Source: an uncultured Gemmatimonadota bacterium (lineage in GTDB: Bacteria > SM23-81 > DAOVCL01). Taken from it: a stretch of DNA of 64,000 bases. Made by a program: the position numbers and the translations under genes. Shown here piece after piece: positions 37,026 through 64,000 of this stretch. The stretch is taken from the NCBI GenBank assembly GCA_964626665.1, contig CAZVGK010000001.1, positions 141,914-205,913 on the forward strand. Direction: 5' to 3'. The notes beneath the pieces are model-generated. The model made no database searches, had not been told where the DNA came from, and saw only the letters and a list, made by a program, of their open reading frames with translations. Position 1 is the first letter of the stretch; every line of letters starts with the position of its first letter.

Positions 37026-40000
37026 TTATTTGAGTAACACCATTTTTCTGGTAAGCGAGAAATCTCCTGCTTGAAAACGGCAAAAATAGATACCACTTGT
37101 CACCTCTTTTCCACTCCGATCCTTGCCATCCCAGTAAGTTTTGTAATACCCACTTGACTTATCCTCATCCACCAGAGTTTTCACTAATTGCCCTTTTATA
37201 TTATAGATCTTGAGGGTCACATAGGTGTTTCCCGCGAGTCCGTAATTGATCTCCGTGATTAGGTTAAAAGGATTAGGGTAGTTCTGGGAGAGGGTAAACA
37301 CAGATGGCACTGGAGATTCGTTGCACGAGGGTACGGACTTTTTATCCTCTCGAACATAATGGCCGGTGGTGACCAGGACGAAATCCCTCTCATAATCACT
37401 CAACTGCTTGGGGGCAGAAAAGGCCAGCCTCACCTCTTGCCCAGGAATCAACTCGGCATAGACTCCATCTGGCTGCAAAAGGGACTTCAGGACAGAACCA
37501 TTTGCTGAGTGAAGGGCCTTAGCCAGTGGACAACTCCGAATCTTTAAGGACACATCTTCAGCCCCAACCAGCCCAATAAAATCTAAATCATAAGGTATCT
37601 GCCAAAGGAGACGCACCTCTACCTCTCTCCCCTCAGATACTCTCCATGGCAACTCTACCAACTCCGTATACTTGTTCTCCCTATAACTGATTCCCAATAC
37701 TGTCTGAGATTTGGGGAAATCATCTCCAATAATCAACATAGGTTCCGCTTTGGGACGCCTTTTGCTCTGGTCTTTAGCAACCGTTCCACCTATGACCAAG
37801 GCCACTTTCCTAATCCCTTTAACCTGGCCGAAATTAACCGTGAGCTCATCCCCTCCTCTCCCCCTGAAAACCAGACCATCCGCCGCTGAAACATATTTTG
37901 AGAATTCTCCACCCAAAGAATCAACAGCAGATATTGGGCCAGTCAGCTTCTTGTAACCCAATATCTTTCCCGATGTGCTAACTGCAACCTTAACTTCAGA
38001 TGGATGCTCCACCGCCATAAGCTGTAGCTGATCGATCCAGGAGTGTTCATTTTCAAATTCGCGAAGCTCAAGATAGTAGTTTCCGTCTTCAGGGACAAGG
38101 GGTTGTTGAAGCTGGTAGTAATCGCTTATGTCCTTACCCTCATTCTCCAGCAGTTCAGCAAGAGGTAGAAGGTTATTGTCCTCTACACTCTTCTCTCCAT
38201 CCCAGGTAAACACATAGGGACAACCATTGTAGGGCGAATGATGATGATAAAAAGCTCCCATATCTGCCCTTGTCCCATCAGGATCCTTTGGACTAAGGGG
38301 ATAACCTGTATCTATGCAAGGTGAACCCGCTTGTAGGTGATAATCACCATTGGCAGAATTTAAGAACATTGGATCAGCAGATATATCTTCTCTACCTACT
38401 GCACAACCCTGGTAGTTAACGCCATTACCCCATAGGTCATTGTAAGATATGTTTGGGAAAAGATCAACATCACTATAAATACCATAATCGCTATTACTGG
38501 TGATTATGGTATTTGTAATAGTCAGATAGCAGTTATCAATGCATCGAATACCCGTGTTATTACCAGGGATCGTGTTGTTGATAATATTTGGACAGCATTG
38601 TAGTGTGCATTGAACAGCAATATTATTATTAGTGAGCAAATTCCTCTCAATATCGGGGGAGGCAGAAAACATACAACCTATCCCAAAATGTGACATATCG
38701 GTAATGGTATTACTACGGATTTTGCAGAGATGAGATGATGACCCCCAGCAGAGGATACCATAGGTATCATCACCGTTGCCAAGGATTGAGTTGTTACTAA
38801 TAGTTAGATAGTTAGAAGTAGGTGAGCAGGCTAATCCCTCGTTTTCAACAGTAATCTTATTGTGGGAAATCTCCCCCCACCCATTAGCGACAACAGCATA
38901 TTGACAGTGACTTATCTCGCTGTTGCTTATGGTGGCAAATGAATTGAACCAGACCCCTTGATAGGCGTCTTTTATGGCGCAAAAATTTAAAGTTAAATTA
39001 CCACCATCGCCAATATGGGTGGATATCCCTCCCCAATCTGAGATAGAAGGGGCCGAAGTATTTGATGAACAAAAGGTAATTTCGTAGTCATCTACCCCGA
39101 TAGCCCTTAATGCCCCATCCACCAAAAGCTCACATTTATCTGGATAAAGCCCTATATTTTGGACATCACTATTTGCCGAGAAGTAAACAGTAACCCCAGG
39201 GTCTATAGTGAGGAGGGCTCCATCATCCACAGTTACATCGCCATATACATAGATGTCCCCTGACCAGGTGGTGTTTTCAGTAATATGTCCATGAACTCCA
39301 CATGCAAGTTCGGTTTCATAAGGTATGTTGTTGTGTTTAGTAACTGTAACCTTCAACTCATCATAGGTGGAAAAAGAGGTGTTGAAGGTCGCCTCTCCGT
39401 TAGCATCGGTATATTGGATTTCGTGATAGTCCTCACTCTCTTTCCATAGACATACCAAGGCATCCGGAACACCAGCATTGATAGTAATACTGCTGGGGCC
39501 GATCTGATAGAAGCAGGGATGGGAGACGGCAAGAGGTTGAGGCACCCCTGTCCAGATCCGCAGGGCCGGATCCCCAAGGACATGGAAATCCTCGAACTCA
39601 ACCCTGGTTACCTCGGGGGTAGGTGCCCATTTTGAAGGATATCCTGCCCCACCTGTGAGGACATATTTGTCGAACATCCAGAACTTGCCGTAGTTCAGGA
39701 TCGCACCCAACCGGTCTGTCGGGCTACCGATCTGTGTGCCGCAGTACCCGGGGTCGAAGTCGTCCCAGATGGCGTCGTAGAACCCCTTGCAAAGCTCATC
39801 GTTATACCCGCTGTAGCTGATCCTGGTCGAGCCGATGAAGCCCACAACCCCCTTCCCCTGGGCCTTCAACAGTGCCTCTCCCAGGCAATCCGTGATCAGA
39901 TAATCGGGGGAGTCCAGATCGGTCTCCCCATCGAACCATCCGGTCCGGCAATTAATGCTGAACATCACCGGGAGCTTATCACCGTTACCCAGGCTGGGAA

Positions 40001-41471
40001 TATCCTCGGTGACGAACCACGGCTTATTCCAACCATTGTAGCCACCAGATGGGGCATTATAGGAGTCTCCGTGATCCCGATGATTGACTAAGAAACATCC
40101 CTGGTTGATCGCATCGATCACGTCCTGGGTGGTGCCATCGAAGGTCAGATGCCCCGGGATGGGATCTCCATTGTGGTAGTACTGAGGGGTTGACCCTATT
40201 GAGCAGGTGTAAACCCTCTGACGGTCATACCCCTCGCCCTCTAAGAAATCCTGGACCACCTCAGAGGTGTAAATGAAAAACCTGTCCTCCCGGCCATCAG
40301 GTTTGAAGTCCTCGAAATGGCCCGCCAACAGAACCCGGTTGAACCACTCCGAGCTTGTTGTATACGGATCCCGCTCATACCCCAGGATCTTGTCCACGAC
40401 TATCCCGATATCCGACTCATCCACCGGCAACCTCCCCACCAGGATATCGGGGAAATCGACCAACTGAGTGTCAGGTGGGTCGTTCTCTGTATCGACTGTG
40501 GCGTAGTAGAGATCAGTCCCGACCTTTTCGTCTCCAAATGGATGAGGATACTTGTAATGGACTGGTAGAAGATCTGCATCGCCGACCAGAAGGAGAAAAG
40601 ATGGGGCCGGATCCCAGGTGTCATAGGCAACCTGGACATAATCGGCGATCTGGTCAGCCGTGGGATCACCCCCTAACTCCGAGAGCTTGACGACTCTGGT
40701 CTTGAGTCCTGTCCGCTGCCTCCATTCAGCTAAAGGCAGGATCTCATCGTAAAGGTCGTCATGCACCATGATCAGGTAGTCCGCCCCGTCGCCACCCTTC
40801 CCCTTCCCCCCACCCACTGGTTCGTAGTTGAGGGCCAGCCTGTTGAGCATAGACCGAAAATGGGGGGAATCCTTGGGGCTGGCCACGGATCCGGCACCAC
40901 TCACGCTCACCCTGAGCTCGGGATAGACCCTCAACTGCCCGGTAACAGGATTGTGCTGCACCGGGTAGAGGATGACCAGGACAAGCCTATGACCCCGAAG
41001 TACCCTGGGAAAGCTGAGGGCGACTATGTTCTTCGGGTAAAAGCCGTCCTCGGAATATAGGGAGTCATCCCTGACGAACTCGGTCGTGTCGTCCCACTCG
41101 ATCCGTGGCTCCTGGGCCGGATAGACCAGATACCCATCCAGGATCTGACTGGTCGAGTCGATGATGGTGACCGTGGGCTCGACCCCGGGCTCGATCTCCA
41201 TCAGTATGGCCACGGTGGGGAGCTCTGGCCGGCCGATCTCGGCGATATGCCCGCCGCCGGAAAACCTCAGCAGTTGATAGGTATCCCCCTCGGCCTCCAT
41301 GTCGTGGCTGATCAGACCATATGTCTCCAGCTCGATGATTTCCGAGCCAGAAAGGGTAATCTGCGGCCTGGTCGGAGTGGTCGCATCCCCAAAGGAGACC
41401 CACATTCCGTAACCAGCGCTGGGGACAAATCCCAGCAAGGCCACCACTATAAGAAAACGAATCGCCTTCAT
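37026..41471 (-). CDS. Secreted multidomain gingipain-like cysteine peptidase (family C25 fold) with parallel beta-helix repeats and a Por/T9SS-type C-terminal sorting domain
   Basis: Signal peptide; His region VNHRDHGDS and Cys region LPVMFSINCRTGWFDG with ...LGDPALRIWTGVP, resembling the gingipain catalytic domain; Asn/Gly/Ile-rich beta-helix repeats; C-terminus LSQNYPNPFN...IYNIKGQLVKTLVD...GIYFCRFQAGDFSLTRKMVLLK. Confidence 0.75.
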   Translation of the reverse strand: MKAIRFLIVVALLGFVPSAGYGMWVSFGDATTPTRPQITLSGSEIIELETYGLISHDMEAEGDTYQLLRFSGGGHIAEIGRPELPTVAILMEIEPGVEPTVTIIDSTSQILDGYLVYPAQEPRIEWDDTTEFVRDDSLYSEDGFYPKNIVALSFPRVLRGHRLVLVILYPVQHNPVTGQLRVYPELRVSVSGAGSVASPKDSPHFRSMLNRLALNYEPVGGGKGKGGDGADYLIMVHDDLYDEILPLAEWRQRTGLKTRVVKLSELGGDPTADQIADYVQVAYDTWDPAPSFLLLVGDADLLPVHYKYPHPFGDEKVGTDLYYATVDTENDPPDTQLVDFPDILVGRLPVDESDIGIVVDKILGYERDPYTTSSEWFNRVLLAGHFEDFKPDGREDRFFIYTSEVVQDFLEGEGYDRQRVYTCSIGSTPQYYHNGDPIPGHLTFDGTTQDVIDAINQGCFLVNHRDHGDSYNAPSGGYNGWNKPWFVTEDIPSLGNGDKLPVMFSINCRTGWFDGETDLDSPDYLITDCLGEALLKAQGKGVVGFIGSTRISYSGYNDELCKGFYDAIWDDFDPGYCGTQIGSPTDRLGAILNYGKFWMFDKYVLTGGAGYPSKWAPTPEVTRVEFEDFHVLGDPALRIWTGVPQPLAVSHPCFYQIGPSSITINAGVPDALVCLWKESEDYHEIQYTDANGEATFNTSFSTYDELKVTVTKHNNIPYETELACGVHGHITENTTWSGDIYVYGDVTVDDGALLTIDPGVTVYFSANSDVQNIGLYPDKCELLVDGALRAIGVDDYEITFCSSNTSAPSISDWGGISTHIGDGGNLTLNFCAIKDAYQGVWFNSFATISNSEISHCQYAVVANGWGEISHNKITVENEGLACSPTSNYLTISNNSILGNGDDTYGILCWGSSSHLCKIRSNTITDMSHFGIGCMFSASPDIERNLLTNNNIAVQCTLQCCPNIINNTIPGNNTGIRCIDNCYLTITNTIITSNSDYGIYSDVDLFPNISYNDLWGNGVNYQGCAVGREDISADPMFLNSANGDYHLQAGSPCIDTGYPLSPKDPDGTRADMGAFYHHHSPYNGCPYVFTWDGEKSVEDNNLLPLAELLENEGKDISDYYQLQQPLVPEDGNYYLELREFENEHSWIDQLQLMAVEHPSEVKVAVSTSGKILGYKKLTGPISAVDSLGGEFSKYVSAADGLVFRGRGGDELTVNFGQVKGIRKVALVIGGTVAKDQSKRRPKAEPMLIIGDDFPKSQTVLGISYRENKYTELVELPWRVSEGREVEVRLLWQIPYDLDFIGLVGAEDVSLKIRSCPLAKALHSANGSVLKSLLQPDGVYAELIPGQEVRLAFSAPKQLSDYERDFVLVTTGHYVREDKKSVPSCNESPVPSVFTLSQNYPNPFNLITEINYGLAGNTYVTLKIYNIKGQLVKTLVDEDKSSGYYKTYWDGKDRSGKEVTSGIYFCRFQAGDFSLTRKMVLLK

Positions 41472-41488
41472 CCTAACCTCCTTGACTT

Positions 41489-42703
41489 TTATCTCACCAA
41501 CATCAACTTCCTCACATTGGTGAGGGCTCTCCCTCTTCTGTTCTCAGCCCGCAACAGGCAAAGATATATCCCACTTGGTACTTCCTTCCCTCCCCCATCC
41601 CTCCCATCCCAGATCACCCGATGCTCTCCAGGTGGCTGTGGGCCATCCACCAGTGTCCGCACCACCTGTCCCAAGATGTTGTAGACCCTCAAGGTGGTTG
41701 GAACTGACCACTGACCACTGACCACTGGGGAAGGGAGGTGGTAGGGGATGACGGTACCCGAATTGAACGGGTTCGGATAGTTCTGGCCCAGGGCGAAAAA
41801 CCCTGGAACGATGGCCTTATCCTCAGATGGAACCCAATTGTGTGGCCTTGACCTGGGGTTTCTGACCCCATCGACCTCCCCAAATTGAGGACCTGTCGGC
41901 TCCGTGGAGGTGGTGGTGCAATCACCGTCGCCGATCGTGTCCACAGGAAAGCCAAGGGTGGTGTCGATATTCCCCTCACACTGCAGGTAGTTGCCGTCCA
42001 GGAAGCCCCCTCCCATGATGGTGTGGGATCCAAAGTTCCAACCGATGGTGAATATAATGTCGTTCTCCAACAACAAAGGATTGCTCGGTTCCAACCCAAA
42101 GAGCGCTCCTCCTCCTCCCGACCTCAAAAAGCAATATTCGATCACTGGAAAGGAAGAACTGTCACAGGCGACCAAAAACCCCCCCGTCTCAACCTGACTG
42201 CTCGTCCACATCAGCTTGCAGTGGGAGATGGTGGGAGAGGCGTTAGATATCTGGATCATTATACCCTCGGCACTGCTGGTGTGCTCCACCACACAGTACC
42301 TAAGAATGCACTCCGAATCCACACAGGTATCGTTAAATTTTATCCCCCCCCAGGCAGTCCAAGGCCACTCTTCACCATCGTCGGTGAAGCTAATCATCAC
42401 ATCTGGCTTCCCGCAGGCCTCTAAGGCCCCGTTGATGGTCAACCCAATAGCCTCCTCGAACTTCAACACCATCCCCGGATCTATGACCAGCTTGTCGTTG
42501 GCCGAGATGGTTAGGTTCCCACTTATCAGATAATACCCCTCATCCCGCCAGGTGACATCATCGGTAAGCTCGTCCACCATCTGCATGGTGTAAACCGTCC
42601 CATCCCCAGGGGAAACCCAATCGGCCCAGGCCAAAAGGGGGAAACACCAGATGATGCTGATAAAGACGATTAAACTCCTCCATTCTCTCATCCTCACCTC
42701 CAA
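41489..42703 (-). CDS. Secreted protein with Por/T9SS-type C-terminal sorting domain; central domain not assigned
   Basis: Signal peptide; C-terminus ALGQNYPNPFN...LRVYNILGQVVRTLVDGPQPPGEHRVIWDGRDGGGKEVPSGIYLC. Confidence 0.65.
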   Translation of the reverse strand: MEVRMREWRSLIVFISIIWCFPLLAWADWVSPGDGTVYTMQMVDELTDDVTWRDEGYYLISGNLTISANDKLVIDPGMVLKFEEAIGLTINGALEACGKPDVMISFTDDGEEWPWTAWGGIKFNDTCVDSECILRYCVVEHTSSAEGIMIQISNASPTISHCKLMWTSSQVETGGFLVACDSSSFPVIEYCFLRSGGGGALFGLEPSNPLLLENDIIFTIGWNFGSHTIMGGGFLDGNYLQCEGNIDTTLGFPVDTIGDGDCTTTSTEPTGPQFGEVDGVRNPRSRPHNWVPSEDKAIVPGFFALGQNYPNPFNSGTVIPYHLPSPVVSGQWSVPTTLRVYNILGQVVRTLVDGPQPPGEHRVIWDGRDGGGKEVPSGIYLCLLRAENRRGRALTNVRKLMLVR

Positions 42704-44690: not shown

Positions 44691-44999
44691 TCAGACTCTT
44701 ATCTCCACATCCACTCCGGCAGGAAGGTCTAACCTCATCAAGGAGTCTACCGTCTGAGGAGTGGTATCTTCAATGTCTATAAGCCTTTTGTGGATTCTGG
44801 TCTCAAATTGCTCCCGGGATTTTTTGTCCACATGGGGGGAGCGTAAAACAGTATAGATGGACCGCTTGGTGGGTAGAGGTATGGGACCTAAGACCTTGGC
44901 CCCTGCCCTCTTAGCTGCCCTGACGATCTCACCGGTTGAGCGGTCAAGCATCACATGATCATAGGCTTTTAGCCTAATTCTTATCTTCTGGCCTGGCAC
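44691..44999 (-). CDS. rpsJ: 30S ribosomal protein S10 (GTG start)
   Basis: [43 protein letters not shown]; GGAGG RBS. Confidence 0.95.
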
Positions 45000-45041
45000 C
45001 TATTAACCTCCTCTTTCTTGAGACTGAAACTCATCAAGATA

Positions 45042-46934
45042 CTATTTGAGAAGCGCCATCTTTTTAGCAACTTTAACATCCCCAGCTTGGATTTTATAAA
45101 AATAAACCCCACTTGCCACCTCTTGCCCATTGTCGTCTCTTCCTCCCCAACAGATATTATACCGGCCGGCTCTTTGTCTCTCATCTACTAAGGTTTTAAC
45201 CTTCTGTCCTAAGAGATTGTAAACAACCAAACTCACCTGGGCATCCATCGGAAGTTCATAGCCTATCTCGGTCTCCGGGTTGAAAGGATTGGGGAAATTC
45301 TGGGCCACAAAAAACTCCTTTGGCAATTTTTCGTCTTCATTGGGTTCTACAAACACTTCGACTGAGTAAGACGCCTCCATAACCCCCCAGATGTTATAGA
45401 CCTCGATGGTTATTGTGCTGTCCCAAACTTCATCCATAGGATCTTCGTAACTAAAGGTGAAGCCTGTCACTTGGTCATTAGGCGGATAACCTCCAAAGTC
45501 AGTTGGATGAATGGTTATCCCATTATGTGTGGGGTTGTCGTCCCCACAGTTGTGTTGGTCATCATAGTCCACATACTTATCATAACTCCATCCTCCTGTG
45601 CCCGAGCCGTATACCCGCACCCTATTCAGATCAAGTTCGTTCCCAGGCACTGTCACCCAAAAAGAGGCTCTCGGCGAATGGGAGCTAACACCCCATATGG
45701 TCATATTTTCAGTATCTGTATGGGGCAAAACATTCATCGGGTTCCTTAAGTAAGAAAAGGCGGTTCCACCCAGGTAATCCTCAGCATGTAAGTGATCAAG
45801 CCCAATATGCCTAATCCCTCCAATTCTGGTCAGTCCAGCAAAAACACTATCTCCAAAATTTACACTGGGATTTACATGCACATATTCCATACGCTGATTT
45901 GGAATCACAGCATCTCTAATCCTAACCGACTGGCTGCCTATGTGATCAACAACACCGGTAAAAACAGCGTAAACATCATCCTCTGTCGCAGGATTATCAT
46001 CATCATCAATGTCAAGTCCGCCATGCCAATCAAAGGTAGTGTCATTCCCAGAGATTAGGATTCTCGGCCCAAAGGGACTGGTTAAACTATGAAGGGGTGT
46101 GGTGTTTCGAGACAAAGGCCAGTAATAATTCTCCGTTCTAATTCTCAGAATAACATCGTCAACAAATGCGCCTTTATGTGTCTGAGTGCCATCGCTTTCG
46201 AAAGCAAACGCTATCCAAACTTGAGGGTGACCACAAACATTACCTATGTCAGGGACATTGGTCAGATCGAAGTTTTCAAAGCGCCAGACATCCCCTCCAT
46301 CGCCATAGGCCGCATAACCTGAGAAATTTGTGCCATCGATTGATGCAAGTCGAGAGAACATATCAGCTTCGTACATCGTACGACACCAATAATAAAAGTG
46401 CAGCTCCGCATCGGTGACGTTGCCAACACTAAGGTCGCAAGGACCCCAAATCATAAAGGTGAGAACATTATTGGCATAATCATCAAACTCTGGATCAAGG
46501 CCATTTACCCCATCCCGGCAACACCATGCACTATATTTTCCTGAATGAGGATTATAGTCATCTTTACCCCATAAATGACCGGTGGGATTGCCTGTGTGCC
46601 CAACATCTCGGCGGCTCCAAGCATATCTGGGAAAAGACGATTCGAAATCTTCGGTCATAATGTTAACCCAATGTGGCAGAAGGAGGGCATCATTCCCATC
46701 TTTGATGTTTCCATTCTGGCTGTTTCCCATATGTATAATGCGTACACTTTCTGAAAGTTCTGAATTTTTGCCACAAGAAACCAATGCTTTATCTCCATCC
46801 AGCAATTGATAGTGAATCTTCTGCGAGCTGACAAATTCCCCGATTTCAACTTTAGCTAAAGCAACGGTAGCACCTATTAGAGGAAACCCTATTATAAAAG
46901 AAGCACATATTCCTAATTTCCAATGAACCTGCAT
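45042..46934 (-). CDS. Secreted protein with a possible M23-like metallopeptidase region and a Por/T9SS-type C-terminal sorting domain
   Basis: Signal peptide; HGGLDI and LDHLHAE resemble the M23 HxxxD and HxH motifs (tentative); C-terminus FFVAQNFPNPFN...VYNLLGQKVKTLVD...GVYFYKIQAGDVKVAKKMALLK; AT-rich third codon positions. Confidence 0.6.
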   Translation of the reverse strand: MQVHWKLGICASFIIGFPLIGATVALAKVEIGEFVSSQKIHYQLLDGDKALVSCGKNSELSESVRIIHMGNSQNGNIKDGNDALLLPHWVNIMTEDFESSFPRYAWSRRDVGHTGNPTGHLWGKDDYNPHSGKYSAWCCRDGVNGLDPEFDDYANNVLTFMIWGPCDLSVGNVTDAELHFYYWCRTMYEADMFSRLASIDGTNFSGYAAYGDGGDVWRFENFDLTNVPDIGNVCGHPQVWIAFAFESDGTQTHKGAFVDDVILRIRTENYYWPLSRNTTPLHSLTSPFGPRILISGNDTTFDWHGGLDIDDDDNPATEDDVYAVFTGVVDHIGSQSVRIRDAVIPNQRMEYVHVNPSVNFGDSVFAGLTRIGGIRHIGLDHLHAEDYLGGTAFSYLRNPMNVLPHTDTENMTIWGVSSHSPRASFWVTVPGNELDLNRVRVYGSGTGGWSYDKYVDYDDQHNCGDDNPTHNGITIHPTDFGGYPPNDQVTGFTFSYEDPMDEVWDSTITIEVYNIWGVMEASYSVEVFVEPNEDEKLPKEFFVAQNFPNPFNPETEIGYELPMDAQVSLVVYNLLGQKVKTLVDERQRAGRYNICWGGRDDNGQEVASGVYFYKIQAGDVKVAKKMALLK

Positions 46935-46952
46935 AACTCCCCCTACTCTAAG

Positions 46953-48353
46953 TCAAAGACTAGCCTTAACTTTTTGAACCACTTTTCTTCCCCTATCCAA
47001 AATGATGAAAGACCTCATCCCATTTTCGTAACTCATCATAGGGAGGATGCGAACTGTGTCATAAGACTTCTTGCATATTTCACCTGTTTCTAAACTAAAG
47101 ATAACGGCAACCTCCTCAAATTTTAAGCTAACTCTCTCCCTTCTGCGCATCGTAGTAACAAAGCTCTTGTTAATGGTAGATGCGCAACATTGATGCCAAT
47201 AACTATTCCAGTCTTTCCCTAAAACTTTTCTCCATCTTCTTTTTCCAGTAAGAAGATCAAAGATATCTATCGTAGATGGAGGCCCACTTTCGGCAAGGAG
47301 ACTCTTAGAGTCGTCAATAAAACAGAACCAGTTTAATCCTCCTACTTTTTCTATCCGCCTTTCGGGCCCCATTGCTGCCTCTATCGTCACAAAGTCTTTG
47401 CTGTTCCACAATATATCCCCTTCATTGCTTAATACTACCAGTCTCCTCTCCCCGCCGCTTCTCTCTTCACCCGGAAGATTGGAATAGTCCACCGCAATGG
47501 CCATAAACTTCCCACTTTCACTCACCTCAAGTTGCGGTATTTCTGTTGGATTAAAAAACAATCTAAAGTGAAGGGGATCTCCTAATCTTTCACCAATATC
47601 AATTTCCCACTTCGTTTTTAAATTCTTTACATTAAAAAGAAGCAACTTGACATAAGGCCTTTCCAGGTTGTATCCCTTGAAATAGACGACTTCGCTGTCA
47701 TTTAAAAATGTGGCCACCCAATTAAATTCCGTGCGTATAATTTTAGAACCTCTCTCAATGGATTCCTTCCCTTTGTCCCACCATAACTCCTCACCAGTTC
47801 TATTATCAAAAACCCTGAAATATCCACCCCACCTTTCGACACCGCTTTTGTGAGTTGTTATGGCATAGTCACCTTTGGGCGATAAGGTGAGTCCTGGTGC
47901 AAAAAGAGGAGTCTCCCACTTGAGATTGCCATCCTTGTCGTAACTCTTCGTAATCACCCACTCACATCCGGCACGAGAATTTATGATTACTTCTCCCCCT
48001 TCCGCTGAGATCGACACATTATCCACTCCACCATAATATTCGCCACGTTCATCTGGCTTCAGGTCAAATCTCTTCTCCCACAAAATATTTCCATTAGGCC
48101 CCAAATAGTAAACAACACTGCAAAGGCCTTCCCTCTTATCAAAAATATCTGTCAGAACAACTATGTTCTCATTGCCAACCTGGATGTCTCGTATCTTGCC
48201 TCCAAATTCCCTTTCCCAAATCAGCTTTGAGTTGGGGAATAAGCCCTTTGCCGGCGATTCCGCTATGGCACTGCCTACCCACATCATCAACAACGCCAAT
48301 ACAGAGAGAGCCAGAACCCTCAGGATTCCTTTTCTCAACACTTGCTTCCCCAT
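46953..48353 (-). CDS. Hypothetical secreted or membrane-anchored protein (466 aa), possibly beta-propeller-like
   Basis: N-terminal signal/anchor (LRVLALSVLALLMMWVGSAIA); Trp/Gly-rich repeats; AT-rich codon usage like the neighbouring 630-aa gene; 18 bp upstream of it. Confidence 0.55.
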   Translation of the reverse strand: MGKQVLRKGILRVLALSVLALLMMWVGSAIAESPAKGLFPNSKLIWEREFGGKIRDIQVGNENIVVLTDIFDKREGLCSVVYYLGPNGNILWEKRFDLKPDERGEYYGGVDNVSISAEGGEVIINSRAGCEWVITKSYDKDGNLKWETPLFAPGLTLSPKGDYAITTHKSGVERWGGYFRVFDNRTGEELWWDKGKESIERGSKIIRTEFNWVATFLNDSEVVYFKGYNLERPYVKLLLFNVKNLKTKWEIDIGERLGDPLHFRLFFNPTEIPQLEVSESGKFMAIAVDYSNLPGEERSGGERRLVVLSNEGDILWNSKDFVTIEAAMGPERRIEKVGGLNWFCFIDDSKSLLAESGPPSTIDIFDLLTGKRRWRKVLGKDWNSYWHQCCASTINKSFVTTMRRRERVSLKFEEVAVIFSLETGEICKKSYDTVRILPMMSYENGMRSFIILDRGRKVVQKVKASL

Positions 48354-48449
48354 TTTAAAGCCTCCAAATTAGAGATATACCCTCCCATAGTAACCACCAA
48401 AATTTCTCCTAAACCTCACCCCTTTCCTTTGAGGAAAACAGAAATACTC

Positions 48450-49655
48450 CTATTTTATAACCTCTGCTACGACCCCTGCTCCCACGGTTCTTCCCCCCTC
48501 CCTGATGGCAAACCGTAGCTCCTTCTCCATCGCTATCGGCGTGATTAGCTCCCCCTCTATGGTCACATTATCCCCGGGCATGACCATCTCTACCCCCTCC
48601 GGTAGCTTTACCACCCCAGTCACATCCGTGGTGCGAAAATAAAACTGCGGCCTATACCCACCGAAGAAAGGTGTATGCCTACCCCCTTCCTCCTTCGTCA
48701 ATACATAGACCTCACCCTTAAACTTGGTATGCGGGGTGATCGACCCCGGGGCTGCTATTACCATCCCCCTCTCTAACTCATCCCTGTTTACCCCCCGCAA
48801 CAGCAAACCCACATTGTCCCCAGCCTCTGCCCGATCCAGGATCTTCCGAAACATCTCTACCCCAGTCACTACCGTCTTCTTCGTTTCCCTGATCCCTACC
48901 CTCTCCACCGCATTCCCTACCTTCACCGTCCCCCTCTCTACCCTCCCTGTCCCTACTGTCCCTCGCCCAGTAATGGAAAATACATCCTCCACAGACAGCA
49001 AGAAGGGCTTATCCAAATCCCTCTTCGGCTGAGGTATATACTTGTCCACCGCATCCATTAGCTCATAGATGCTCTTGAAGGCCTCACTCTCCTTCACCTC
49101 AGGGTTGGCTGCTGCCTCCATCGCCCGCAGGGCACTTCCCCTGATCACCGGCACCTCATCCCCCGGGAAGCTATACTCCGTGAGCAACTCCCTGACCTCT
49201 AACTCTACCAAATCCAATAGCTCAGGATCATCTACCTGATCTACCTTGTTCATATAGACTACTATATAGGGCACCCCTACCTGCCTGGCCAAAAGGATGT
49301 GCTCCCTGGTCTGGGGCATCGGCCCATCAGCAGCGGATACCACCAGGATGGCCCCATCCATCTGCGCCGCCCCGGTGATCATATTCTTCACATAATCGGC
49401 ATGCCCCGGACAGTCTATGTGCGCATAATGCCTGGCGGCGGTCTCATACTCCACATGGGCTATCGCTATGGTTAACCCCCGCTCCTTCTCCTCAGGAGCA
49501 TTGTCTATAGAATCAAATGTCCGGGCCTCCGCCAGGCCCTTCCTATGCAAGATCATGGTAATCGCCGCGGTCAAAGTGGTCTTCCCATGATCCACATGCC
49601 CAATAGTCCCTATGTTTATGTGCGGCTTCGTGCGCTCAAACTTCTTCTTCGCCAT
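48450..49655 (-). CDS. tuf: Elongation factor Tu
   Basis: [15 protein letters not shown]...DCPGHADY... Confidence 0.97.
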
Positions 49656-62645: not shown

Positions 62646-62757
62646 TATCTTCCCCTTTACGAAGCTGCGCCTTCCCGTTTAGGGTAAACTTGCTGACGAT
62701 TGGAAGAACTAGGTTGGGCGAAGCTTAAAATTGTAAATTGCAAAAGTCAAAACTATC

Positions 62758-62815
62758 TTATTTTTCAATGGCTGGCTGCAAACATTCGGCCTTCCGATGA
62801 AACCAGCTAGATACT
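62758..62815. repeat. Intergenic repeat in the nusG-rplK spacer, related to 19094-19165
   Basis: Shared blocks caatggctggctgcaaaca / caatctctggctgcaaaac and gatgaaaccagcta / tatgaaaccagcta on the same strand. Confidence 0.5.
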
Positions 62816-63608: not shown

Positions 63609-63758
63609 TTACCTTGTCTCCCGGTGAATGGTATGTTTCTTACAGAACTTGCAATATTTTTTAAAGCTTAGCCTATCCGGATGTTTCCTCTTGTTCTTCG
63701 TAGTGGTATAATTTCTCCGCTTACACTCCGTGCAGGCCAAGGTAACTATTTCTCTCAT
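63609..63758 (-). CDS. rpmG: 50S ribosomal protein L33 (49 aa, below the ORF-track size cutoff)
   Basis: Hand translation: [49 protein letters not shown] with C-x2-C...C-x2-C zinc ribbon; start ATG overlaps the tuf copy 2 stop (ATGA). Confidence 0.85.
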
Positions 63759-64000
63759 TTTATGACCTCAGCTACGACCCCTGCTCCCACGGTTCTTCCC
63801 CCCTCCCTGATGGCAAACCGCAACTCTTTTTCCATGGCGATGGGCGTGATCAGCTCCCCCTCTATGGTCACATTATCCCCAGGCATGACCATCTCTACCC
63901 CCTCCGGTAGCTTTACCACCCCAGTCACATCCGTGGTGCGAAAATAAAACTGCGGCCTATACCCACCGAAGAAAGGTGTATGCCTACCCCCTTCCTCCTT
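63755..64000 (-). CDS. tuf: Elongation factor Tu, second copy (3' portion only; continues beyond the window)
   Basis: 63766-64000 is nearly identical to the 3' end of tuf at 48451-48690, with a few synonymous differences and a different stop codon. Confidence 0.9.

Follow-up and report, generated by a model that had tools for sequence, protein, structure and literature searches.

Genes between tuf and rpsJ

We analyzed a 64,000-nt stretch of DNA from an uncultured bacterium (contig CAZVGK010000001.1, assembly GCA_964626665.1), called the window below. Its minus strand carries the str and S10 blocks of translation genes. The order upstream is tufB (3' end)-rpmG-tRNA-Trp-secE-nusG-rplKAJL-rpoBC-rpsL-rpsG-fusA-tuf. 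From tuf on, it continues with a 466-aa gene, a 630-aa gene, rpsJ, rplC, rplD, rplW, a 404-aa gene, a 1481-aa gene and rplB. The subject of this study is the pair of genes between tuf and rpsJ, referred to as the cassette. It contains only two open reading frames (ORFs), both co-oriented with the operon. An earlier note on this DNA had described genes for proteins of 466 and 630 residues between tuf and rpsJ, and the ORFs bear this out. The features of the locus are as follows.

48450-49655, minus strand: tuf (tufA), elongation factor EF-Tu, 401 aa; ends the str block and anchors the cassette on the left
48354-48449, minus strand: left junction, the 96 nt between the ORFs of tuf and the 466-aa gene
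46953-48353, minus strand: 466-aa gene, from its ORF translation
46935-46952, minus strand: 18-nt spacer between the 466-aa and 630-aa genes, with a GGGGGAG ribosome-binding site
45042-46934, minus strand: 630-aa gene, from its ORF translation; stop codon TAG at 45042-45044
45000-45041, minus strand: right junction, the 42 nt from the 630-aa stop to the rpsJ GTG
44691-44999, minus strand: rpsJ (ribosomal protein S10), GTG start; opens the S10 block and anchors the cassette on the right

In the left junction, the tuf stop codon TAG is followed by GAGT, as at the empty sites of relatives, and then by cassette-specific sequence. This junction contains a GGAGG ribosome-binding site for the 466-aa gene. 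The right junction supplies the ribosome-binding site of rpsJ, AGGAGG, located 7 nt upstream of the GTG. Its measured length of 42 nt agrees with the spacing given in the earlier note. It is homologous to the junction at L006, a locus in a related organism, and unlike the 10-nt spacer of empty sites.

The rpsJ protein has tight relatives at 93-99% identity, and the next matches are at 85% or below. At six empty sites (L022, L023, L024, L025, L026 and L029), tuf and rpsJ are separated by 10-11 nt, for example in ...ATAAAATAG GAGTGGAGAG GTGCCAGG.... These short spacers indicate that tuf and rpsJ belong to one tightly packed transcription unit in the clade, and that the insertion in the window is derived. 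The expectation that tuf directly precedes rpsJ holds in these relatives, but it is not universal, as E. coli has 16.9 kb between the two genes.

The identical 630-aa protein was found on 23 contigs of up to 220 kb from independent JGI and Logan assemblies, and its context is the same wherever the flank is long enough. A chimera of assembly or binning, in which unrelated AT-rich DNA is joined to a ribosomal operon, would account for the compositional jump located exactly at the gene borders. It is not expected to recreate the same junctions on these 23 contigs, or to place homologous cassettes at the same kind of junction in four other organisms. Because identical junctions recur across independent assemblies, we consider an assembly error excluded, with a negligible residual probability. 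On this comparative evidence, the 3.4-kb two-gene segment is a real insertion at the tuf-rpsJ junction.

The two genes have an unusual codon composition. The G+C content at third codon positions (GC3) is 0.443 in the 466-aa gene and 0.410 in the 630-aa gene. The other 58 genes in the window have a mean of 0.616 (standard deviation 0.041, range 0.54-0.71, minimum 0.537), which places the two genes at z-scores of -4.2 and -5.0, respectively. The codon adaptation index of the cassette genes is also low, 3-4 standard deviations under that of non-translation genes. The earlier impression that both genes are richer in A/T-ending codons than tuf and rpsJ is thus confirmed. Translation genes (0.615) and flagellar and other genes (0.622) have a similar GC3, and the low values can therefore not be put down to codon bias linked to expression. 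The G+C contents at first and second codon positions are ordinary in both cassette genes. The anomaly therefore lies in synonymous codons, not in expression level or amino-acid content. Cassette genes at all loci have a GC3 of 0.39-0.47, compared to 0.48-0.73 in their neighbors.

Few candidate transcription signals are found in the cassette. An Rfam scan of the window revealed no ribosomal leader or other RNA besides tRNA-Trp. The counts of sigma-70 promoters and terminators equal the shuffle expectation, and no convincing terminator is present in the left junction. The Bacteroidetes-type -33/-7 promoter motif was not found within the cassette. The predicted folds of the junctions are not significant (z = -0.13 for the 96-nt left junction and -0.53 for the 42-nt right junction). 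At empty sites, the spacer of 10-11 nt is too short for an rpsJ promoter within it. The lack of a detected terminator, promoter or structure, the co-orientation of the genes and the short empty spacers suggest that the cassette is most likely promoterless and expressed by read-through. The cassette genes would be transcribed from the super-operon promoters upstream, and rpsJ and later genes of the S10 block would be transcribed through the cassette. Elsewhere in the window, the only match to the Bacteroidetes-type motif (TTTG-N17-23-TAnnTTTG) is located at approximately 62748-62782 on the minus strand, in the gap between nusG and rplK. It is just upstream of rplK, where an rplK promoter is expected, and hints at promoters of the Fibrobacteres-Chlorobi-Bacteroidetes (FCB) type.

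Distribution, exchange and proposed movement of the cassette

Relatives of both genes were searched for among approximately 5.8 billion proteins, GTDB species genomes, JGI metagenomes and IMG/VR. Across all of these sets, the 630-aa and 466-aa families occur in about five lineages. No donor outside a small Zixibacteria clade was found in the protein, GTDB, JGI and IMG/VR searches. A phage origin was considered and rejected, since no relatives of the cassette are present among the viral contigs of IMG/VR. PADLOC gave no defence matches.

The cassette is found behind either of two tuf copies. The second site in the window consists of the following features.

63755-64000, minus strand: 3' end of tufB, a gene that extends past the window, with its TGA overlapping the rpmG ATG (ATGA); empty alternative cassette site
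63609-63758, minus strand: rpmG

In the window, the tuf-rpsJ junction is occupied and the tufB/rpmG junction is empty. The reverse is seen in GCA_029932675.1 (loci L005 and L026), GCA_030670005.1 (L010 and L022) and GCA_030629745.1 (L007 and L025), where the tuf-rpsJ junction is empty and the cassette precedes rpmG-tRNA-Trp-secE-nusG. At L005 and L010, the two of these loci with the upstream side visible, it directly follows a tuf gene. One junction alone is occupied in each of the four genomes in which both are visible. The number of genes varies. The array at L005 encodes, in order, proteins of 431, 413, 629, 470 and 630 aa, and the array at L010 proteins of 476, 421 and 627 aa. A fifth organism (L006, L020, L021 and L027) has a frameshifted 270/166-aa gene followed by 415-aa and 625-aa genes before rpsJ. 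In a sixth, more distant organism (L015), 468-aa and 598-aa genes are followed by nuo genes, and the upstream side is out of view. The cassette genes are co-oriented with the operon at every locus. That the cassette alternates between the junctions of the two tuf copies, tuf-rpsJ in the window and L006 and tuf-rpmG in three genomes, is well supported. The spacer from tuf to the first propeller gene at L005 (75-414) measures 340 nt, compared to 96-105 nt elsewhere. Its first approximately 22 nt and last approximately 30 nt are common with the spacer in the window, and approximately 240 nt are extra.

The two tuf copies, both on one contig, encode the same 401-aa protein. They are identical at 1193 of 1206 nt. 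The first 1079 nt are 100% identical and all 13 differences are located in the last 127 nt. This pattern recurs in two related genomes; it is the classical one for concerted evolution and points to gene conversion between the copies. We also considered whether a cassette-linked tuf 3' end travels with the cassette. The idea was dropped, as tufB in the window is an outlier compared to all copies, occupied or empty. The cassette-linked tuf in L010 matches tufA at 8 of the 13 sites that differ between the window copies.

Comparison of synonymous divergence (dS, by the NG86 method) in the same genome pairs indicated that the cassette has been exchanged. Between the window and L005, dS is 0.34-0.38 for the cassette and from 0.93 to over 2 for adjacent core genes. 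Between the window and L010, the values are 0.30 and 0.59-0.93, and between L005 and L010 the propeller gene has 0.09 compared to 0.89-1.34 for core genes. The synonymous divergence of the cassette is thus 2 to 14 times under that of the neighboring core genes; these NG86 values are open to composition bias, and raw nucleotide identity agrees with them in direction. The DNA of cassette genes is 88-96% identical between genomes whose core genes are approximately 78-84% identical. The relationships are incongruent as well. In core genes the window is nearest to L010, whereas in the propeller L005 is nearest to L010. The L005 and L010 propellers share 94% amino-acid identity, compared to 84% for rpoB. 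The ratio of nonsynonymous to synonymous divergence (dN/dS) is 0.17-0.35 for cassette genes (0.26-0.35 for the 466-aa gene, 0.17 for the 630-aa gene against its L005 orthologue). This is purifying selection and suggests that the cassette genes are functional. Despite their lower dS, the cassette proteins evolve faster than core proteins.

The exchanged segments have sharp limits. In a sliding-window alignment, a 1.5-kb block is 92-99% identical between L005 and L010, extending from a 19-nt core at the rpmG start to approximately 40 nt before the propeller stop. The module in the window is 83-96% identical to the second module of L005. This similarity sets in around the start of the 466-aa gene, reaches the 630-aa stop codon and collapses at both edges. 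Judged from these alignments, the exchangeable module is the two ORFs with their 18-nt spacer. Exchange of the cassette between related Zixibacteria lineages is well supported by these sequence comparisons. The dS values, the incongruence and the sharply bounded blocks support a foreign origin independently of composition. The suggestion of foreign origin in the earlier note, drawn from codon usage, is therefore upheld by variable occupancy, two sites and low dS, with the refinement that sharing appears to be internal to the clade and that no outside donor was found.

Could the genes instead be old, vertically inherited residents of the operon, with A/T-ending codons kept by selection? Selection could damp the translation of genes in a very highly transcribed operon. 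GC3 is low in all lineages despite 12-25% divergence of the core proteins, which does not fit simple amelioration, and the cassette is restricted to one clade. Long residence is, however, difficult to reconcile with a cassette dS far below that of core genes in the same pairs, or with the incongruence between propellers and rpoB. Close relatives have empty sites, the occupied site varies by genome, and the mosaic blocks are sharp-edged. The dS values, the empty sites and the mosaic blocks already disfavour this explanation, and we consider it quite improbable.

Repeats at the rpmG site provide clues to movement. There, a 19-nt stretch from the start of rpmG, AAATGAGGGAGATCGTTAC, recurs as a direct repeat on the flanks of the cassettes (L010 and L005). 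At L010, the tuf stop is directly followed by a copy with two mismatches, and the real rpmG starts with an exact one. At L005, exact 19-nt copies are located between modules 1 and 2 and again at rpmG. The crossover point is the same in both, ...GTTAC/TCTTCCAAGG (GTTAC/TCTTCC). Serial site-specific insertion would leave such a pattern, and so would unequal recombination at a short core. In the window, the 19-nt core AAATGAGAGAAATAGTTAC is found once, at the empty tufB/rpmG junction. A repeat that had been noticed by eye at the junctions of the window cassette, CTCAAAGGAAAGG... and CTCAAGAAAGAGG..., was rejected, as 125 of 500 shuffles score as well. The sequence of the right junction tracks the site, being of rpsJ type in the window and L006 and of rpmG type in L005, L010 and L007, and does not track the module type. 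From this it appears that one module replaces another at an established site, with homologous recombination as the simplest means. An examination by integron-type criteria found no recombinase or IntI gene at the loci and no significantly structured junction.

We infer the process that moves the cassette from these traces. Homologous recombination may act through the very conserved flanks and the conserved end of the 630-aa gene that encodes its C-terminal sorting domain (CTD). The left end of the exchange would be in tuf, and the right end in the CTD-coding region or in the core genes downstream. Alternatively, an enzyme encoded elsewhere would recombine the DNA site-specifically at the 19-nt core of the rpmG start. 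By one of these routes the cassette has probably grown into tandem arrays and swapped gene-sized blocks between genomes.

The site-specific route can be taken further. The cassette may be a remnant of a site-specific element at the tuf-stop junction, similar to a cis-mobilizable element (CIME), that is served by a tyrosine or serine recombinase encoded elsewhere. Homologous recombination would then not be the main route; the proposal competes with the mobility step only. The exact 19-nt target repeat that flanks the L010 cassette and lies between and after the L005 modules, with the same crossover point, is consistent with it, since serial integration at an att core would yield this pattern. 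There is precedent in streptococci, whose integrative and conjugative elements (ICEs) carry integrases and insert at the ends of rpmG, rplL and rpsI (Ambroset et al., 2016; PMC4701971). However, no recombinase gene is present in or next to any cassette, the rpsJ-site junctions have no repeat, and viral contigs contain no relatives. The type of right junction depends on the site, irrespective of the module, which fits homologous swapping of modules. We regard a CIME-like remnant as possible but unlikely.

The encoded proteins and their pairing

The 630-aa protein starts with a signal peptide, read by eye as MQVHWK plus hydrophobic LGICASFIIGFPLIGATVALA/KV. Four further regions follow.

46134-46670, minus strand: MAM-like (InhA-like MAM type) domain, aa 89-267
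45720-46121, minus strand: putative divergent M23 metallopeptidase domain, aa 272-405
45345-45704, minus strand: conserved beta-rich domain (MTIWGVSS...YNIWGVMEASYSV), aa 411-530, nearly invariant in the family alignment
45045-45296, minus strand: type-A CTD of the type IX secretion system (T9SS), aa 547-630

The CTD is matched by TIGR04183 with 33.2 bits (cutoff 23) over aa 547-626. The Pfam scores are 35.9 bits for FlgD_ig (cutoff 27) and 26.5 bits for PF18962 Por_Secre_tail (cutoff 27). A signal peptide together with a sorting domain, as the earlier note had proposed, is therefore present. The MAM-like domain shares 41% identity over 211 aa with P0006. Regions homologous to it give weak PF20773 matches, and the proteins in which they occur are secreted M10, lipase and papain-type enzymes. 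The domain at aa 411-530 has no Pfam match.

The region at aa 272-405 contains the motifs expected of an M23 peptidase, H304-G-G-L-D308 (HxxxD), H353 (YVH) and H381-L-H383 (HxH). H304xxxD308, H353 and H381 are invariant in all six aligned family members. Pfam M23 is the sole family that appears in the domain scan, in the correct register, and the best family member reaches E 0.0048. With the full-length 630-aa protein, there is no Pfam M23 match at E<0.1. Profile comparison (hhalign) against an alignment of E. coli MepM and NlpD, lysostaphin and LytM gave a probability of 91.4% and E 8.9e-7 over 108 columns. HxxxD aligns with HRGVD of MepM, YVH with YMH and HLH with HLH, which are the Zn-ligand and catalytic positions. 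A search of 1.84 billion proteins with a profile of the domain gave 250 matches at E<=1e-3. Eight of the ten top matches scanned carry PF01551 above threshold (41-145 bits) in the matched region. A PHROG endolysin family is matched as well, with E 1.8e-5. In this copy, the region is thus, by motif and profile, a divergent M23 relative with a complete catalytic set. The peptidase proposed in the earlier note holds for its motifs and for profile homology to M23, but the region fails Pfam's own threshold. Structural searches added little. A Foldseek search of the PDB with the low-confidence model of the M23 region returned noise only, and sequence-profile searches of the PDB with the family gave only FlgD-like matches to the CTD and chance matches.

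Within the family, two N-terminal types are observed. Type A has the MAM-like domain, and type B a different one that by eye resembles a P-domain. The active site is HxH or HxD. The L006 protein combines a type-B N-terminus with a type-A-like M23 insert, and thus recombination has occurred within genes too.

The 466-aa protein has a signal peptide (MGKQ...GSAIA/ES), consistent with the secreted protein proposed earlier, and no sorting domain. It is therefore predicted to be periplasmic. PQQ_2 is matched by eight of the nine members of its family (best E 4.5e-11); the window protein alone scores 21 bits (cutoff 27.6). All PDB profile matches of the family are beta-propellers. On this homology the protein is a PQQ_2/BamB-like beta-propeller. 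A propeller gene directly precedes each peptidase gene. Type-A peptidases follow propellers of the 466 type, and type-B peptidases follow those of the 413/415/421 type. Propeller genes outnumber peptidase genes, and the 476-aa propeller at L010 is an orphan with no type-A peptidase partner. In the fifth organism, the first propeller is split into overlapping ORFs of 270 and 166 aa (L006 20-1329, L021 36-1345, L027 20-1329). The same frameshift is present in three independent assemblies, one from ENA and two from JGI samples. A sequencing error is therefore not the cause, and the gene is either a real pseudogene or subject to programmed frameshifting.

The cassette is not the only interruption of the super-operon. 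At 37026-42703 on the minus strand, the 404-aa and 1481-aa genes separate rplW from rplB. The former encodes a CTD protein, and the latter a C25 (gingipain-family) peptidase with a beta-helix and a CTD. The gap is 6.4 kb, compared to 117-203 nt in L006, L022, L023, L024 and L026, and its spacers measure 450, 17 and 275 nt. The earlier note had called the cassette a second, independent interruption. The rplW-rplB insertion is real, and it is independent of the cassette, since cassette-bearing relatives do not have it. In the 1481-aa gene (37026-41471, minus strand), codons 1-600 (propeptide and C25) have a GC3 of 0.65-0.75, and codons 600-1200 (beta-helix) one of 0.37-0.46. The latter part is as AT-rich as the tuf-rpsJ cassette, which suggests a fusion of native and foreign sequence. 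In GCA_029932675.1 (L026 6079-8393), two genes with T9SS CTDs are located after rplX, where the window has rplE. One encodes 454 aa with BNR repeats, and the other, which is cut off by the locus end, 239 aa. The clade seems to make a recurring habit of placing genes for T9SS cargo within ribosomal-protein operons, at positions that vary by genome. The three CTD proteins encoded in the window make it likely that the genome also encodes T9SS machinery. A literature search for Zixibacteria and type IX secretion found nothing.

In the route that we propose, Sec carries the 630-aa protein into the periplasm, where it folds before its type-A CTD directs it to the T9SS, and the protein ends up on the cell surface or outside the cell. 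Its M23 domain would most likely cut peptidoglycan cross-bridges or glycine-rich peptides, and the MAM-like domain would bind the target. The 466-aa propeller may be a dedicated periplasmic partner. As such, it would protect the wall of the producer, most likely as an inhibitor or immunity protein (or as a chaperone). The strict pairing, and the extra, orphan and decaying propellers, which resemble immunity genes in this respect, suggest such an effector and partner. We hold with moderate confidence the sequence-derived view that the cassette encodes a T9SS-exported lytic peptidase with a periplasmic inhibitor or immunity partner.

The main alternative to a lytic role is a nutritional one. The 630-aa protein may be a surface protease or adhesin used to obtain nutrients, or be inactive, with the propeller as a substrate-binding or assembly partner. 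The neighboring insertion encodes a gingipain-like C25 protease with a CTD, and relatives place other CTD proteins in ribosomal-protein operons, which suggests a general habit of placing T9SS cargo there. Further, the MAM-like domain is common to degradative enzymes of M10, lipase and papain types, most family members have HxD instead of HxH, and some M23 enzymes, such as pseudoalterin (PDB 6ik4), degrade elastin too. Set against this, profile comparison places peptidoglycan hydrolases and a phage endolysin family nearest among characterized relatives, and a nutritional role leaves the strict pairing and the orphan propellers unexplained. We consider it the less probable of the two roles, and prefer the lytic peptidase with its partner.

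Overall, we put at roughly 0.7 the probability that the segment is an inserted and exchanged two-gene cassette, expressed by read-through, that encodes an M23-type T9SS cargo protein and a propeller partner. A number of observations weigh against this reading. For the peptidase, PF01551 gives 12.9 bits (E 0.13) against a gathering cutoff of 28.7, H383 is replaced by Asp (HxD) in four of the six aligned family members, and AlphaFold2 confidence (predicted local distance difference test, pLDDT) is low, with 32.5 for the full length from a five-sequence alignment and 45.0 for the M23 region. The propeller is possibly an immunity protein, a role to which only gene order and copy-number pattern point. 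For mobility, no recombinase gene is located in or beside the cassettes at any locus, the neighbors being tuf, rpsJ and rpmG, and the repeat search found no relevant flanking repeat at the rpsJ-site junctions of the window. Only about five lineages carry the cassette, and the composition bias that may affect dS belongs here too. For expression, two weak sigma-70-like matches are present in the last 140 nt of the 630-aa gene, and the scans used sigma-70 and Bacteroidetes-type consensus sequences that Zixibacteria promoters may not follow, so that an internal promoter is possible.

Few gene adjacencies in bacteria are as conserved as the str-S10 junction, and the S10 genes in the window apparently depend on transcription through the insert. 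In Salmonella, breaking the contiguity of such an operon costs fitness (PMC6735719). If confirmed, our findings would imply that junctions of this kind, ultra-conserved and highly transcribed, can act as landing pads for accessory genes and as platforms for their expression in uncultured phyla. They also bear on concatenated ribosomal-protein markers and synteny-based binning, which assume a contiguous str-S10 block. With a secreted M23 lytic enzyme and a periplasmic partner, the cassette is a concrete candidate for T9SS-dependent antagonism.

Relation to known systems

Proteobacteria are known to carry insertions between the operons of their translation supercluster, and these insertions start small and at operon junctions (PMC6735719). 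In E. coli K-12, 16.9 kb with chiA, bfd, bfr and gsp genes separate tufA from rpsJ. Interruption of the tuf-rpsJ junction is therefore not new, and a secreted hydrolase after tufA has precedent. As in the window, the genes between are non-ribosomal and include a secreted hydrolase; E. coli adds a secretion system. In E. coli, however, str and S10 are separate transcription units, rpsJ lies behind a gap of 237 nt, and the opposite strand carries most of the gsp genes. In the window, the ancestral spacer is 10 nt, the insert is co-oriented, no terminator or promoter was detected in it, and it supplies the rpsJ ribosome-binding site. The window cassette is also polymorphic between two tuf junctions and recently exchanged. 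A genetics paper on Patescibacteria was considered as a precedent for tuf-rpsJ as a neutral insertion site, but this was wrong, as the paper concerns the tuf and rpsJ promoters only.

The rpmG-site cassettes resemble ICEs, integrative and mobilizable elements and CIMEs (PMC4701971) in that the end of a ribosomal-protein gene is regenerated, target repeats are present and elements accrete in tandem. They differ in having no integrase, excisionase or transfer gene at the loci, and in a size of only 3.4-8 kb. In addition, the 5' end of rpmG is used and not the 3' end, and the rpsJ site has no repeats. Integron cassette arrays are likewise variable and use an external promoter, as is proposed here, but the loci contain no attC-like structure and no intI gene. 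Concerted evolution of tufA and tufB by gene conversion is known (PMC5485169, PMC6735719). As in those systems, the copies here share 1079 nt without a difference and diverge only at their extreme 3' ends, a pattern common to three genomes. The variable cassette located directly behind the conversion tract of either copy is different, and a causal link between the two may exist.

Compared to known M23 enzymes (LytM/lysostaphin type and phage endolysins), the 630-aa protein is similar in being secreted and having the motifs in register. It differs in an acidic insert after HxxxD, in HxD in most of the family, and in the fusion of the M23 domain with MAM-like and novel conserved beta domains and with a T9SS CTD. 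Like T9SS type-A cargo such as gingipains, it has an N-terminal signal peptide and a C-terminal TIGR04183 domain; unlike them, it comes from a Zixibacterium and its gene is embedded in a ribosomal operon. The cassette further resembles effector-immunity pairs, with a gene for a periplasmic partner directly upstream of a wall hydrolase gene, and with orphan or decaying partners. To our knowledge, no effector-immunity pairs with T9SS delivery have been described, and the cassette, if our reading of it is true, would be the first such system tied to type IX secretion.

Several features set the cassette apart from these systems. As read from the compared loci, it is a co-oriented insert, with no transcription signals detected, in a 10-nt spacer of what appears to be a single transcription unit, and it alternates between two concertedly evolving tuf copies. 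The att-like 19-nt repeat, tandem accretion and mosaic exchange in loci with no recombinase gene, and the persistent AT-rich codons, are further differences. We consider it possible but rather unlikely that the cassette represents a distinct, undescribed type of small mobile element, a promoterless and recombinase-less cassette of tuf 3' junctions that would be expressed by the super-operon, would spread between lineages with tuf, rpsJ and rpmG-tRNA-Trp or the 19-nt core as handles, and would carry bacteriolytic T9SS M23 effectors with propeller immunity proteins.

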